DNA from: a virus
Length of the DNA stretch: 64,000 nucleotides
IMG/VR virus record: IMGVR_UViG_3300022744_000028
Span: 5,750 to 69,749 of that record
Strand: one strand, 5' to 3'
Part shown: positions 5,501-32,563 of the stretch, piece by piece
Position numbering within the stretch: position 1 is the first letter of the stretch
Layout: every line of letters begins with the position of its first letter
Position numbers and translations under genes: made by a program
Notes under the pieces: model-generated
Told to the model about the DNA's origin: nothing
Databases searched by the model: none
The model's input: only the letters and a program-made list of their open reading frames with translations

Positions 5501-8500
5501 AAGTCGATGACGACAGATACGGACGTATTTGCAATATCGTAGTAGCTGTCAAATGAAGGAACTGTTGTCAAGTTACCAACATATCTCCAATACTGGTCAA
5601 CGAGCGTACGCTCCTTGGTAGCAGTAGGCTGACTCAACATGATCGTCGTATTGCTGTAATTGAGCAATACGTGGTCGCCGTGTCTGCTGACATTCGAGCT
5701 TGCTGCTTCGTTGAATTGAAGGTCGACGCGAGCATCTGAGAAGTATGGACGTGCAATGCCACTAACTGTATCAATCAAGATCTTGTACTCAGGATCTTGA
5801 AGGTTAGATACGTTATAATCAGTCATTGGATCTACAAAGAACCCGTTCTTGAAGCGCTCAATCGAAGAGTTTGCTTCACCTGGCAGCACCATTTGCTTGG
5901 TGCTGGTTTCCAATGTGTTCAATAGAGTATAGTATTCCAAACGGCTGATACGTCCTTCGATGTCGGAAATATCCTTCATCGTGTATCTACGGTTTTGTTG
6001 TGGAAGCACATATACGCCAAGGTCTGGGCGGCCACTATCGGCAGCGTCTTTGGCAGATAGACTTGGATATGGTGGTACGTTGACAACACCGATCGTCATA
6101 CATCCTTCTGGTTCCACTGGAACAGATGGAGAGTTGGACGGAGTACCTTCAACGATACGGATAGAACCAACCTTGTCGATGATAATTCTGTCACGGCGGG
6201 CAAGATATGATGTTACCGAGCCAGTGAACGATCTTGTTGGTGAAGGGAACTTCTTATCTGTAGCAGCGAACGTCACCGTGCTGCTTGGATCGATTGTTGC
6301 AGTAGCAGCATCGGTGGCCATAACAGCTGTGTTTGAACAGATAGGACGGAAGTCAATCACGTTACGAAGATCGTATGCCTTACCAGTCTTTGGTGATACA
6401 AACACAGGGATGTCCTGAGTTCTGATCTTGTTGCTTGGCAATGGGTTGGTTGTGTCGTCGATCGAACCACTATATGATTCTGTAGAGATGTATGTACCAA
6501 CGCCGTGCGTCATCGCCTTAACGACGACCAACAGGTTCTTGTTCGTCAGCGAAATAGAAGCACCTGGGCGAATCTTCAATGTAGATAGGCCGTAGAAGTT
6601 GTCTGTCTGTCCACTGTCGATTACAAAACTGTCACGGTAGTTTGTCGTAGATGTGTTAGCGTATGATGTGCCTGTGCCAACATATACGCCGACCAAATCT
6701 ACTACGTCAGGAATACCTAAGCTCCATGGACCACGTGTTGATGTAGTAGTCGCTGTATTAGAAATCTTTACATAATATGTGTTAGCTGTCTTAACACGAA
6801 CAGCAGGAGAGTCGAACTCGGCATCGTGGTAGACTGTAGCGCCAGCAGTCGCCGTAATTGGGTGACCCAAAGAGACTGTAATCGCACTACGTGTAGAATC
6901 AGTAGCGATTGTACGACCGGTTGGTGCAAAATCGATAGGCACGTTAGCTGGATATGTGGTGTGGTGAGCGTTGCCTGTCCACGAAGCACCCCAGTTTGTA
7001 GACACCTGTATCGATGTGTTGGAGATGATGCGCGTAATCAGTGCAGTGTTGCCAGATACGCTGGTATTACCGACTTTGATATATTGACCAACAGTATATT
7101 CTGTAGTAAACAACGTACCAGTGCCCGTCACAGTGTTAGCGCCAGACGTGACTGTAACAGTACCACTATTATTCGATGACTTAGTCATCGCGCTGCTTGG
7201 GATAACGATGAAATCGCGCTCTTGAATAGTATTCAGCGTAGAGCTAGCTTCGTATGGGAACTGAACGCCACTACCCAACGAGATACTCAAGTCACCAGAC
7301 AACGTAAACGAACCTGTGTTGTTCGATGTACGATCGATTACAACTTCGTTGTCGAGCTGTTGGACGGCAAATGTACCAGTTTCAAATATCAAACGATCAA
7401 AATCGGCATCATATTGCACTGCATAGCCGAGTGCCGAATCCCAAATAATGTCTGCAACACCTGTGCTGTTATACAATACAGTACGTACATCTTTGAAGGC
7501 ATATCCTGGCGACATTTGTACGTCGAACAGGTACATACGATATGTACACTCTGCAGATCCTGGGGTTCCAGAATCGTATGCCAATGAACGCACACGAGCT
7601 GTGCCGATTTGGACGCCTCCAGACGGTGCTCCAATGCCATTGCCAGCGCTGATTGCGAGACGGCCGAGTGGGGCAGATGGGTCATTGTACAGAGTGACGG
7701 TAGATGCATTCTTTACATCAAAGTTGCCCATCAGTTCTTTCACCAACACATAGCCGCCATAGTTGGTAGCGATGGTTTGTGTTGTATCTGTTGCTGTATC
7801 TGTAGCCTTGCGGATAGGGTAGCGTGTGTTGTTCATAATCTCAACACGACCGCCTTCAACGTAGCCAACACCAGCACCAACAACCATACTTAGATGAGTT
7901 GTGTTGCTTGCGATTGATTCAGAATACAATGTAAATGGGTTAACGACGTAGTTACCTGACTCTTCATATGTACGACGAGCCAACTCTTTGTTGATCGAGT
8001 TGTATTGTGTAAATGTGCGGTCCTTTATGACGCGACCATCTTGGTATTCATATAACGTCAAGAATTCGTTATTGCTTGCCGCATTAGCTACAGACAATGC
8101 GACTAGGTTAGCTGTCAACTTGAGACGGTCTGCGCCTGGAGCTGTATAGTTAGTGGTGCCACCAGCATTGTCAAGCAATGTTTGATCAGAGTTGCTGTTA
8201 ACAACAGCTTCGCTAGTAACGAAACCAACTGCAACGTTATTAGGTGTCGTATCATATTTCGAAAGAATCGTTTCATGTGCAGCGACGCGGATGAAGTGAC
8301 CTTTTTGGTATATAACACCATCGGACGTCTTGATAGCAGTACCGCGGCCAACTGGTGCAGTATATACGCTATTAGCAACCTGCACTTGAGCAAGGTAGTT
8401 GACCACGTTCAATACAGCGCCAGCACCATTCGTAGACGTGATGGTGATGTCTGGAATCGTAGTGTAGCCGATTCCTCGCTCAACGACATTCACACTACGG

Positions 8501-30077: not shown

Positions 30078-30698
30078 CTATACAACTTTATGGATGTTCT
30101 CGGCTTTCGTCATACCCCAGAACCTCGCTTTCCAGTTGTTACGCTCCATGCCGTCTAAAACATCCCACTCATGTTTGAGGTCGATTAGTCCATCTGCGAA
30201 TTCTTGCCAGTCGGTCGTAACGATGCGGTGCTCGTAGAACCCTTTGATCGTGCGTGCAGTAGACAGATCGTGAAAGTCTAGCTCTATGTGTAGCACTTCC
30301 ATGAAGTCGTCTCCCTTGAAATACTCAAGCGCAAAGTCAATTCCCCACTTGGGTTTGATCTTTGTATACTTTAAGAGGTATGGGAATTTGTCTGGAGTGG
30401 CAAATCGCTTGATCTGAGCCAACGCCTCTCCGCTATAACAGCATCTTGTGATTAGCATGCTGTGGTCGACGACAAAGTGTGGATCGTCGGCAATAATCCA
30501 TGGCGTTTGTGCTCCCCACACGCCATTAATGTAGTTGAGCTCTACGCCATTTGCCTTGTAGAATTCTTGTTCAAGTTTGCTTAACTGGAAGCCATCATTA
30601 TCAAAATATTGGATGTTCTCCCAAGTAAACAGACTATCATCTATCGGCTTGGTTAGAACTGCTGGACCGATAAATTCGGTATGTGCAACTCTAAGCAA
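30078..30698 (-). CDS. hypothetical protein (206 aa)
   Basis: Long ORF with an AAGGAG RBS; function not recognised. Confidence 0.75.
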   Translation of the reverse strand: MLRVAHTEFIGPAVLTKPIDDSLFTWENIQYFDNDGFQLSKLEQEFYKANGVELNYINGVWGAQTPWIIADDPHFVVDHSMLITRCCYSGEALAQIKRFATPDKFPYLLKYTKIKPKWGIDFALEYFKGDDFMEVLHIELDFHDLSTARTIKGFYEHRIVTTDWQEFADGLIDLKHEWDVLDGMERNNWKARFWGMTKAENIHKVV

Positions 30699-30715
30699 TG
30701 TGTACTCCTTAAATT

Positions 30716-30812
30716 AGTGGTGGGTTATTCTGTTACGAGGAAACCCACCGAAACCCTAGAGCCTATTCAATTAGGCTGCAATGCAAACTTCGAAGTTTGC
30801 ATTTACTAAATA
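30716..30812 (-). ncRNA. second tmRNA-like tag module (resume motif, tag ANFEVCIAA*, stop hairpin, terminal hairpin)
   Basis: On the - strand: AGTAAAT GCA AAC TTC GAA GTT TGC ATT GCA GCC TAA, hairpin AGCCTA/TAGGCT, then GGTGGGTT-TCCTCGTAACAGAAT-AACCCACC. Confidence 0.65.
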
Positions 30813-30834
30813 GTATTGCATAACATCTTGGAGG
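30806..30834 (+). promoter_or_regulatory. late promoter and RBS of the endonuclease gene
   Basis: CTAAATA at 30806-30812 (same variant as at 20985) and GGAGG at 30830-30834, ATG at 30841. Confidence 0.6.
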
Positions 30835-30840
30835 ATAAAA

Positions 30841-31233
30841 ATGCAATACTTCACATACTTATGGATTGATAAATCGCGAAAAATGTTTTATGTTGGTGTA
30901 CATGAAGGACATATCAACGATAGCTACATTTCATCGAGCAGATGGTTCAACGGCGAATATCAATATCGACCTAATGATTTTAAGCGTAGGGTTCTTAAAC
31001 TCTTTAACGACAGAGCCTCAGCAACAAAGGAAGAGTCTCGATTGCTTGCTCTAATTAAAGAGGAAGAGTATGGCAGCAGGTACTACAATCTTAAAACCGG
31101 TCGACCTAAAGGCACACCAGCATCCAACAAGGGCAAGCCAATGTCCCCAGAACAGCGCGAAAAGCTTAGCAAGGCTAAGCTAGGAAAGCCATCTGTGAGG
31201 AAAGGCATTCCTAATAAAAATAAAGCTAGTTGA
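30841..31233 (+). CDS. GIY-YIG (Seg-like) free-standing homing endonuclease with a NUMOD3 tail
   Basis: YFTYLW..FYVGVH..YISSS..FKRRVL..EE..LL..YYNLK, plus NKGKPMSPEQREKLSKAKLG; antisense to its neighbours. Confidence 0.8.
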   Translation: MQYFTYLWIDKSRKMFYVGVHEGHINDSYISSSRWFNGEYQYRPNDFKRRVLKLFNDRASATKEESRLLALIKEEEYGSRYYNLKTGRPKGTPASNKGKPMSPEQREKLSKAKLGKPSVRKGIPNKNKAS

Positions 31234-31393
31234 TTCTGTTTCCAAGTTCAACTAGCAAAACTCATGCAGTGCAATTAAGCAGCTGCTAGGAATAACTCAT
31301 CGTTTGCAGTTATTGATTTTGCTTGATTTACGGTCATCGCCTACCGTGTTGCCGTCTCTACTATCTACCCCTGTCGAAACCAAGTGCACCCCC
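31225..31393 (-). ncRNA. ssrA: tmRNA coding piece (two-piece tmRNA); tag ANDELFLAAA*
   Basis: 5' end GGGGGTGCACTTGGTTTCGAC at 31393; pk1-like ACGGT..ACCGT; resume context ATAACT GCA AAC GAT GAG TTA TTC CTA GCA GCT GCT TAA (31307-31275); terminal hairpin GCTAGTTGA/TCAACTAGC. Confidence 0.9.
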
Positions 31394-31473
31394 ATCAAAA
31401 ACACACCAAGTTAGTATTCAGATACATTGAGCTATCTAACTACGTCCTAATCCAATGTTCTTAGGTATGCTTT

Positions 31474-31535
31474 TGGTGGAAGTGGCGGGATTCGAACCCG
31501 CGTCCAGAAGTCCTTCGCTTTGAAGGGATTACAAC
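31474..31535 (-). ncRNA. ssrA: tmRNA acceptor piece, encoded upstream of the coding piece (permuted gene)
   Basis: GGACGCGGGTTCGAATCCCGCCACTTCCACCA: T-arm plus CACTTCC-A-CCA, which pairs with GGGGGTG of the coding piece (G.U pairs included). The 80-nt intervening segment has complementary ends (AAAGCATAC/GTGTGTTTT). Confidence 0.9.
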
Positions 31536-31684
31536 AATTCCTCGAGCTTCTCCAATCTAGGAATTTTCTTTTTTTCCTTTTTGCGGGAGTAGCCACAAGC
31601 TCCACATTTACCATAATCACCAACAACATCACGATCGCAACGGCCGCACCACATGCTTTTGAGGCCGTCCTTGCGAGCAGCCAT
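31529..31684 (-). CDS. small zinc-finger protein (51 aa)
   Basis: CGRCD...CGACG pairs and a basic tail; the stop codon overlaps the 5' end of the tmRNA acceptor piece. Confidence 0.6.
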   Translation of the reverse strand: MAARKDGLKSMWCGRCDRDVVGDYGKCGACGYSRKKEKKKIPRLEKLEELL

Positions 31685-31726
31685 TCCGCTGCGTCTATTT
31701 GATTTTGTTAGGATCATGGTCTATGT

Positions 31727-32563
31727 TCAGACAATCTCCAAAGCCGTTCCGCAATTAGAACAGAATTTGGATGTTGCCTTATTTACCTTACCGCACGTTA
31801 CACACTTAGGCTTAGCCTTGACGGTAACTGGCGCAGTGATCTTATTATCCTCTGTTTCGCCTTTTAATTGCAACACAATAACGTGTTTTTGGTCTTCCAG
31901 AGGGAAGGAATCAACTGTTGTAAATCTTTGCTGAGACATCGATCCAGGAACAGTGATACCGACATCGTTAACAGACTTGGCCATCACGCTATCGTTCCAG
32001 TCCATGCAAGCTGCGCCATCGTGTGCTGAAGCTGCCGATGCACTAACATTCATTGATTGGGGTGATACGATAGCAGACGTAGCCACAAGCGAACGATACA
32101 ACGGCGTACTGTTATTTGTGCTGTAGGAAGATCCAGATGCTGCGATCCATGGTGTTCCACCAGAGCCACCCCACGTATTGGCAAAAGGATCTGGACGGAC
32201 CTGATAGACAGGGCGTGGTTTCTCAAATTGCCATTCAATTCGAATCAGTCCATCTCCTGCACCAACACCACGATGTTGTTCTACAGAAGAAGTACGTTCG
32301 ATGAATTTGAATCTGTTGCCTTGTGTGACGTCTTTGATAAAACGCTCAATTTCCAGGTTGCTGTTTGGGCTAACAACAAGCGAGCGTCCGCCAAGGACAT
32401 CTTCGCCATCGATAGTGATGCGAACATCAGCACGGACAATATTGAGGTTTTTGAGCAGAAGTGAATATTCACATCCGAATGGAAGGTAGACGGTGTCGCC
32501 CACTTCACGAAGAACACGACCGCTACTTTTGACGGCGACGACGAATTGATTTTTGTACATCAT
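31727..32563 (-). CDS. conserved phage protein with a C-terminal double zinc ribbon (278 aa)
   Basis: VYLPFGCEYSLLLKNLN..ITIDGEDV..EIERF N-terminal domain, CVTCG..FCSNCG C-terminus; AGGAG RBS. Confidence 0.8.
   Translation of the reverse strand: MMYKNQFVVAVKSSGRVLREVGDTVYLPFGCEYSLLLKNLNIVRADVRITIDGEDVLGGRSLVVSPNSNLEIERFIKDVTQGNRFKFIERTSSVEQHRGVGAGDGLIRIEWQFEKPRPVYQVRPDPFANTWGGSGGTPWIAASGSSYSTNNSTPLYRSLVATSAIVSPQSMNVSASAASAHDGAACMDWNDSVMAKSVNDVGITVPGSMSQQRFTTVDSFPLEDQKHVIVLQLKGETEDNKITAPVTVKAKPKCVTCGKVNKATSKFCSNCGTALEIV

Follow-up and report, generated by a model that had tools for sequence, protein, structure and literature searches.

The window analysed here, a stretch of 64,000 nucleotides (64 kb; positions 5,750 to 69,749 of the IMG/VR virus record IMGVR_UViG_3300022744_000028), is part of a 71.7-kb viral contig with an estimated completeness of 42% and carries T4-like genes elsewhere. 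Its minus strand encodes a transfer-messenger RNA (tmRNA) of the circularly permuted, two-piece form, in which the acceptor piece precedes the coding piece. A small endonuclease gene lies antisense to this RNA, between two copies of the module that comprises the proteolysis tag and the terminal hairpin (Table 1). Comparison with related phage loci suggests that this gene is probably part of a homing cassette with a free-standing, Seg-like GIY-YIG endonuclease, one that has specialised on the two-piece tmRNA gene carried by a group of freshwater T4-like phages. The features listed in an initial annotation, which had been made from the sequence alone, were all found where it had placed them.

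The permuted tmRNA and its two modules

More than 100 related phage tmRNA loci were gathered via the PK1 pattern. The set of endonuclease-bearing loci, referred to as carriers in distinction from endonuclease-free (free) loci, was extended by a scan for the signature sequence of the cassette, and L numbers denote loci of both kinds. A covariance model, R1, was built from 44 non-redundant endonuclease-free modules of other contigs, spans the region that starts 12 nt ahead of the resume codon and ends with the terminal hairpin, and was run against the window with filters off. The letters A, B, C and D denote allelic forms of the tag-plus-hairpin module.

Table 1. Features at the tmRNA locus, with positions counted from the first nucleotide of the window.
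Feature	Position	Strand	Basis or detail
Upstream 62-aa zinc-ribbon-like open reading frame (ORF)	31529..31717	-	Stop overlaps first tmRNA helix strand
Acceptor piece (3' half of tRNA-like domain, T arm; CCA at 31474-31476)	31474..31536	-	Rfam RF04321/RF01850 alignment, sequence
Intervening segment between tmRNA pieces	31394..31473	-	Insert region of Rfam alignments
Coding piece, 5' part (acceptor 5' strand, P2, PK1, to resume codon)	31308..31393	-	Rfam alignment
Module 1 (resume context, tag, stop-codon helix, type-A hairpin)	31222..31319	-	ARAGORN; R1
Tag 1, ANDELFLAAA*, from GCA resume codon, hydrophobic ..AA end	31275-31307	-	
Terminal hairpin 1, type A, AACAGAAT-containing loop	31225-31256	-	
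Putative Seg-like GIY-YIG homing endonuclease gene, 130 aa, antisense to tmRNA	30841..31233	+	PHROG_314, tblastn
Endonuclease 5' region: TTTACTAAATA box (reverse complement of TATTTAGTAAA), GGAGG ribosome-binding site	30804..30840	+	Conserved in all carriers
Perfect 24-nt palindrome from old resume site plus first and last tag codons	30780..30803		Sequence
Module 2 (predicted stranded remnant: resume context, pseudo-tag, altered stop helix, hairpin 2)	30716..30812	-	R1
Pseudo-tag ANFEVCIAA*	30771-30800	-	GCA AAC TTC GAA GTT TGC ATT GCA GCC TAA
Hairpin 2, type B, intact, same AACAGAAT loop as hairpin 1	30719-30749	-	
Downstream 206-aa gene, TTG start and ribosome-binding site, after hairpin 2	30078..30698	-	

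A permuted tmRNA with the tag ANDELFLAAA* was called by ARAGORN at 31184-31566 on the minus strand, and matches over the full model length were obtained with Rfam RF04321 (tmRNA_permuted; 31275-31536, 144.6 bits against a gathering cutoff of 47) and RF01850 (31221-31588, 139.6 bits against 84). The initial annotation was right to place a tmRNA on this strand, but position 31393, which it took for the 5' end of the tmRNA, is the 5' end of the coding piece, and its span left out the acceptor piece that ends in CCA. The 5' part of the coding piece is identical in the relatives L003 and L005. The intervening segment, which is excised in known two-piece tmRNAs, is hypervariable among relatives. It measures about 190 nt in the free relative L005 (3627-3815, plus strand) compared with about 80 nt in the window, and holds in L005 an ATG-started open frame of about 62 codons (MKLFAKTRDNQ...); a gene in an excised spacer would be unusual. 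The 62-aa ORF upstream ends with a stop codon that is part of the first tmRNA helix strand (GTTGTAA, 31529-31536), and the same overlap is present in L003. A blastn search of the locus against isolated phages matched the T arm alone, in unrelated phages.

Module 1, which is joined to the tmRNA body, is matched by R1 with 60.5 bits (E 1.2e-11), and the endonuclease-free locus L113 has an identical module, tag included. Module 1 is intact and is predicted to be functional. The terminal hairpin is, judged by its pattern of substitutions, a real RNA structure: among 44 sequences, all 8 of its 8 pairs change on both sides, 94% of the cells are paired, and none of 500 shuffles reaches the score. A 3-bp pseudoknot of this hairpin with an upstream GAG/GGG is compatible with the data and weakly supported. 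The tag frames of many related phage tmRNAs (L041, L051, L054, L062, L064, L078, L097 and others) run to about 30-45 codons, where 10-12 are usual.

R1 matched the 64 kb of the window in two places only, modules 1 and 2, and the next match had an E-value of 0.59. Module 2 outscores module 1 (70.4 bits, E 7.5e-14) because type B is the commonest type and type A is rarer. Its type-B hairpin, GGTGGGTT...AACCCACC, is the one seen in L039 and L143, and on the minus strand TATTTAGTAAAT precedes its GCA AAC, beyond the start of the endonuclease gene. What had been described as a second complete module is therefore tmRNA-like by its covariance-model similarity, but its tag is not complete, since the reading frame is destroyed in the relatives. 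Relative to the R1 consensus, module 2 of the window lacks 2 nt at one place and 1 nt at another, so that the middle of the tag is out of frame; comparison by eye with the type-B tag of L005 shows the same deletions. Read from GCA AAC in 16 related carriers, the frame gives AN* in L018, ANF* in seven loci, ANI* in L031, and an ANFQECFY*-type or long nonsense frame in the remaining ones. A tag-like frame ending in ...IAA* was found only in the window and in L086, which is 97% identical to it. This comparison indicates that module 2 is a relic that is unused as a tag, its frame being open in the window by chance. In L018 (2752-2826, minus strand), and likewise in L019, the stranded module 2 is immediately followed by a tRNA with the anticodon CTA, which is amber-reading and labelled Pyl by ARAGORN.

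The part of module 2 next to the endonuclease gene has changed in a way that is common to the carriers. The sequence TAT(T/A)TAGTAAA-N-GCAAAC, a T-rich 6-nt loop and GTT(T/C)GC are conserved as a hairpin or palindrome, and the loss of GA of codon 3 and the T-rich loop are derived features found in all loci. Most lineages have lengthened the palindrome to AGTAAA.../...TTTACT, which costs them the tag end and the stop codon. Outside the coding sequence, no part of the cassette is better conserved than this hairpin together with the box upstream of the endonuclease gene, where 18 columns are invariant across 17 loci. The positions of the hairpin are 85% paired in these 17 loci compared with 25-37% in slid controls. 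No covariation was detected among them, however, and shuffles reach the observed values, so that sequence conservation is sufficient to explain the pairing. Even with 3 mismatches allowed, the palindrome has a single copy in the 64 kb.

The endonuclease family and its endonuclease-free relatives

The gene between the modules encodes a protein of 130 aa and ends with a TGA (31231-31233) inside the 3' arm of hairpin 1. The protein matches PHROG_314, 'homing endonuclease', with an E-value of 1.7e-15, and in a tblastn search its matches were T4-like phage proteins annotated as Seg-like GIY-YIG endonucleases (best E 5e-21), with identities of 30-41%, so that no endonuclease of an isolated phage exceeded 41% in this search. 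The two nearest annotated relatives, of 236 and 270 aa, lie between structural genes and away from any tmRNA. Residues Y3, Y6, Y17, G19, R34, E64/E65 and N83 are invariant in the family, whose longer members L195 and L206 have 169 and 183 aa; the 130-aa form is the minimal version. Pairwise dN/dS ratios are 0.05-0.36 where dS could be estimated, most other pairs being saturated at synonymous sites, and the ORF, which is intact, is therefore under purifying selection. Structural comparison is consistent with the GIY-YIG assignment but weak. The best fold match in the Protein Data Bank (PDB) of an AlphaFold model with a pLDDT of 65 is the catalytic domain of I-TevI (Z 5.0 over 80 residues), and the GIY-YIG domain of UvrC is third (Z 4.0). 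A Foldseek search of the model against the PDB gave nothing significant, with I-TevI ranked first at an E-value of 0.6, and a profile of the family had no match among PDB sequences.

Relatives of the endonuclease are encoded in twenty viral loci. Those with at least 64% identity are all antisense beside a permuted tmRNA, with the end of the ORF overlapping the end of the tmRNA, and at least 16 distinct carrier loci with 60-83% amino acid identity all lie beside a permuted tmRNA. As far as these loci indicate, the family occurs only beside permuted tmRNA genes and always antisense. R1 finds module 1 in every carrier locus that includes that side; of the 18 carriers whose contig extends to the far side, 16 also have a match to module 2, at lower scores of 30-53 bits. 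Each of 68 free loci has a single module, and none shows two modules in tandem without the endonuclease. Among 100 loci picked regardless of the endonuclease, two modules were present only in the carriers L047 and L086.

Which of the two halves is native can be read from carriers and free loci with matching backbones. The flanks of the carrier L047 and the free locus L081 are 91-93% identical. In the coding piece they are identical as far as the base that precedes the resume codon, after which they diverge: L047 continues with a foreign tag, a foreign hairpin, the endonuclease gene and the palindrome, followed by a stranded hairpin that is identical at 43 of 44 positions to the sole hairpin of L081. 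The carrier L180 is syntenic on both sides with the free loci L114, L063, L112, L110 and L106. It has about 570 bp in place of the tag region of about 80 bp in L114, L063 and L112, and its stranded hairpin and downstream gene match the free alleles at 82-90%. In comparison with the type-B locus L005, an insertion of about 493 bp is present at the resume site of the window and some 15 bp are repeated; against the type-A locus L003, the insertion follows hairpin A and measures about 483 bp. Two of the three free backbone relatives of the window are of type B (L005/L006 and L016), and in free relatives the 206-aa gene directly follows the tmRNA. These three backbone-matched comparisons agree: the stranded hairpin is the native one, of whichever type is usual for the phage backbone around it, and the working tag and hairpin are taken to have arrived with the endonuclease. 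This supports, in outline, the central proposal of the initial annotation, according to which an endonuclease cassette in the tmRNA gene brings a replacement 3' half and strands the old one; the single module of free relatives and the covariance-model similarity of module 2 agree with it.

The same pairs (window/L005/L003, L047/L081 and L180/L114) show presence and absence of the cassette at a fixed site among related genomes with mosaic flanks. Among carriers whose module 1 is of type A, the 3' half of that module is 76-98% identical, compared with about 50% for the tmRNA bodies and 55-88% for the endonuclease genes. Type-A modules without an endonuclease are present in L003 and L113 and may be either ancestral or left by loss of the endonuclease.

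A different block separates L047 (4125-4222) from L081 (alignment columns 136-232) within otherwise identical tmRNA genes. It consists of the acceptor 3' strand, the intervening segment and the acceptor 5' strand, with compensatory changes in the stem (CCTGGTCC/GGGCTAG compared with CCACCTCC/GGGGGTG), and looks like a second swappable unit of the permuted gene.

Proposed movement of the cassette and competing explanations

We propose that the nuclease would cut free tmRNA alleles between the resume codon and the terminal hairpin, because this is the interval replaced in the backbone-matched pairs. Repair would copy the donor tag, stop helix, hairpin, endonuclease gene and palindrome, with crossovers on the left in conserved sequence immediately ahead of the resume codon and on the right in the region of the terminal hairpin. 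The recipient would gain a new tag and hairpin while its own hairpin is stranded, and the stranded hairpin could then offer the next invader a portable homology arm on the right that does not depend on the variable downstream gene. A carrier would be protected from further cleavage, its module 1 never being of the common type B and its module 2 lacking the tag core. This fuller scheme, in which homing swaps the proteolysis tag and terminal hairpin of the recipient, immunity depends on the module type, and the relic acts as a homology arm and perhaps as an operator, is put forward tentatively, with somewhat less than even confidence.

Variation among the carriers can be compared with this scheme. 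The module-2 hairpin occurs in several type-B variants, as type C with a terminator and as type D, and the downstream genes differ. A varied hairpin part next to a common derived palindrome is the pattern that would be expected of a right crossover in the hairpin region. Over 316 nt, the only differences between the window and L086 are clustered compensatory changes within the module-2 hairpin, a pattern that looks like a short conversion patch from another allele. Both hairpin-2 variants were present among the contigs of one sample (indels at 30726, 30747 and 30750). Elsewhere, L086 (1036-3175, corresponding to 31727-31731 of the window) has about 2.1 kb extra between a 278-aa gene and the 62-aa ORF, possibly another mobile insert.

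Protection of carriers, which had been suggested as immunisation of the cut site, is probable, and the one observation behind it is that the module adjoining the endonuclease is never of type B. Two type-B marks were found in 28 and 25 of 61 free modules but in none of the 17 functional modules adjoining the endonuclease, and type A in 3 of the 61 compared with 7 of the 17; these counts are phylogenetically non-independent and stem from samples obtained by different search routes, which weakens the homing explanation.

Several further points weigh against it. Module 1 of L021 has a consensus resume region, which leaves its escape from cleavage unexplained. Free genomes share functional modules that are identical to those of carriers (window/L113 and L021/L037) or nearly so (L025/L071), and module 1 is therefore not exclusive to the cassette; in these three pairs, the left junction lies 0-4 nt from the hairpin end. 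Near-native stop helices have been kept in module 2 of L018 and L020, and L021 and L031 have the palindrome only, the stranded hairpin being gone. The protein itself is a further concern. The gene had been annotated as GIY-YIG/NUMOD3, and its GIY-YIG affiliation is supported by PHROG_314 and tblastn, but the Pfam GIY-YIG domain PF01541 reaches only 14.5 bits against a cut-off of 22.6 in the window protein and the single NUMOD3 is likewise below threshold; NUMOD3 was matched in 12 of 16 family members, with a best E-value of 5.9e-6. Moreover, the 130-aa protein is without the C-terminal DNA-binding part of its 236-270-aa relatives, so that DNA cleavage by it must be regarded as putative.

One alternative, which would be compatible with homing, is that the remnant has been co-opted and that the palindrome and the TATTTAGTAAA box regulate the endonuclease, either as an operator bound by the nuclease or as a hairpin that blocks transcript read-through between tmRNA and endonuclease. 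I-TevI, for comparison, represses its own promoter. The strong conservation of the palindrome and box, their position directly upstream of the ribosome-binding site, the excess of pairing over slid controls, and the lengthening of the palindrome at the expense of the tag end would all fit a regulatory role, and the conserved box may be a promoter or an operator. On the other hand, the palindrome lacks covariation and its pairing values are reached by shuffles, and no promoter motif is supported at the cassette. The T4 late motif TATAAATA has no occurrence in the window, and CTAAATA, which had been proposed as the late promoter of the endonuclease, is unenriched there, with 4 occurrences against 7.2 expected, so that this proposal was not upheld. 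A scan for sigma-70 promoters and terminators likewise gave nothing useful at the cassette. Co-option is considered rather unlikely.

The arrangement could also have arisen by a tandem duplication of the 3' end of the tmRNA, with the endonuclease later landing between the copies by chance. Formally, the final arrangement equals a duplication with an insert. However, tandem modules are absent from all of the 68 free loci, the two copies belong to different allelic types, and the arrangement recurs with different hairpin types and downstream genes, which makes such a history very improbable. Another candidate explanation takes the small GIY-YIG protein for a single-strand nuclease of the Ssn type instead of a homing enzyme, directed by hairpins and acting on the perfect palindrome that it adjoins, as Ssn nucleases pair with hairpin repeats (PMC11893778). 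Against this, both the palindrome in the window and the gene in the 71.7-kb contig are single-copy, the sequence relatives of the protein are Seg-like phage endonucleases, and presence or absence at a fixed site in related genomes is a homing pattern. An Ssn-type function is accordingly judged highly unlikely, and a version with dispersed hairpin repeats was ruled out by the solitary palindrome. An integrase-type island was rejected as well: the insert of about 490 bp holds the 130-aa endonuclease ORF only, and the module copies are diverged alleles.

Metatranscriptome contigs cover 30300-31347 and 31318-31800 without differences, but as contigs they carry neither strand nor ends and their RNA origin is unproven. 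Deletion junctions at TGCAAAC, which recombination between the modules might leave, were seen in none of four runs; this is weak evidence because the runs consist of assembled contigs. Joints skipping about 560 bp were considered as deletions in the strain of the window and rejected, their sides being only 21-30 nt long, and they are best read as free type-B alleles of other phages. The summed contig depth of run X8 is 1000-2400 over the conserved tmRNA parts (30708-30758 and 31320-31523) compared with 8 over the endonuclease gene; with such depths taken as a rough guide, the sample therefore contains many related tmRNA phages, most of them endonuclease-free.

The suggestion that both modules are used, through recombination at TGCAAAC or through read-through, to give a switchable degradation tag is supported by the open module-2 frame ending in AA* in the window and L086 and by the intact hairpin 2, but it can be given next to no credence, as the frame is destroyed in every other carrier lineage and shifted in mid-tag by deletions, the resume site is buried in the palindrome, an antisense gene and a distance of about 500 nt separate module 2 from the tRNA-like domain, and the corresponding joint was not seen in the contigs. 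Dual tagging would thus not be worth seeking at this locus, where the second degron-like tag is a chance frame in a relic.

Relation to known systems

Two-piece tmRNAs are described as typical of aquatic phages, for example the OM43 phage Melnitz (PMC9004378). The window resembles Melnitz in having a permuted ssrA gene in an aquatic T4-like phage and differs from it in that Melnitz has a glutamine riboswitch in the 3' part; the endonuclease passages of that paper contain nothing about ssrA.

The closest known counterpart of the gene itself is SegB, a GIY-YIG homing endonuclease in the tRNA cluster of T4 (PMC2330249; PMC13096335; reviewed in PMC2988022). Its homologues are statistically linked to tRNA genes, and SegB can generate repeats of a tRNA and a C-terminally shortened segB (PMC2330249; PMC13096335). 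Like SegB of T4 and T6, the cassette described here places a free-standing GIY-YIG gene next to the gene of a stable RNA in a T4-like phage, and the two also share a presence/absence polymorphism and mosaic flanks that suggest co-conversion. Unlike SegB, however, its target would be the coding piece of a two-piece tmRNA rather than a tRNA, the gene runs antisense to the RNA and into its terminal hairpin, the protein has only 130 aa, and the cassette lies between two diverged copies of the tag-plus-hairpin module. tmRNA is unmentioned in PMC13096335.

Integrase-borne islands and prophages restore the tmRNA or tRNA gene that they split and leave a displaced fragment (Islander, PMC4383910). The cassette is similar in that the gene is split, a replacement 3' part is carried and a displaced fragment remains at the far end. 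In contrast to these islands, the cassette has neither an integrase nor an exact repeat of the att type, forms an insert of only about 0.5 kb in which a nuclease gene is the sole gene, brings a diverged allele rather than a near-copy as the replacement, and resides in a phage genome.

Mobile endonuclease ORFs of fungal mitochondria, such as the one in Allomyces atp6, also bring a replacement gene end: a GIY-YIG gene travels with a foreign 3' end and strands the original one downstream, much as proposed for the cassette. These ORFs invade protein-coding genes in frame, whereas the invaded gene here is that of an RNA and the swapped unit is a tag ORF with an RNA hairpin.

If the homing explanation is true, it would account for the allelic module types A, B, C and D of these phage tmRNAs, and the homing of cassettes would drive tag diversity among them. 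It would further imply that the value of the tmRNA to the phage lets only those invasions survive which restore it, and it would provide a natural endonuclease with a highly conserved segment of an RNA gene as its target. The selfish element would carry its own functional 'exon' and thus represent an intron-less RNA-gene counterpart of the mitochondrial mobile ORFs. No description of an endonuclease family dedicated to phage tmRNA was found in the searchable papers. Free-standing homing endonucleases beside phage tRNA genes are known, and what would be new here is a family dedicated to tmRNA that leaves the gene functional while it exchanges the tag-plus-hairpin module.

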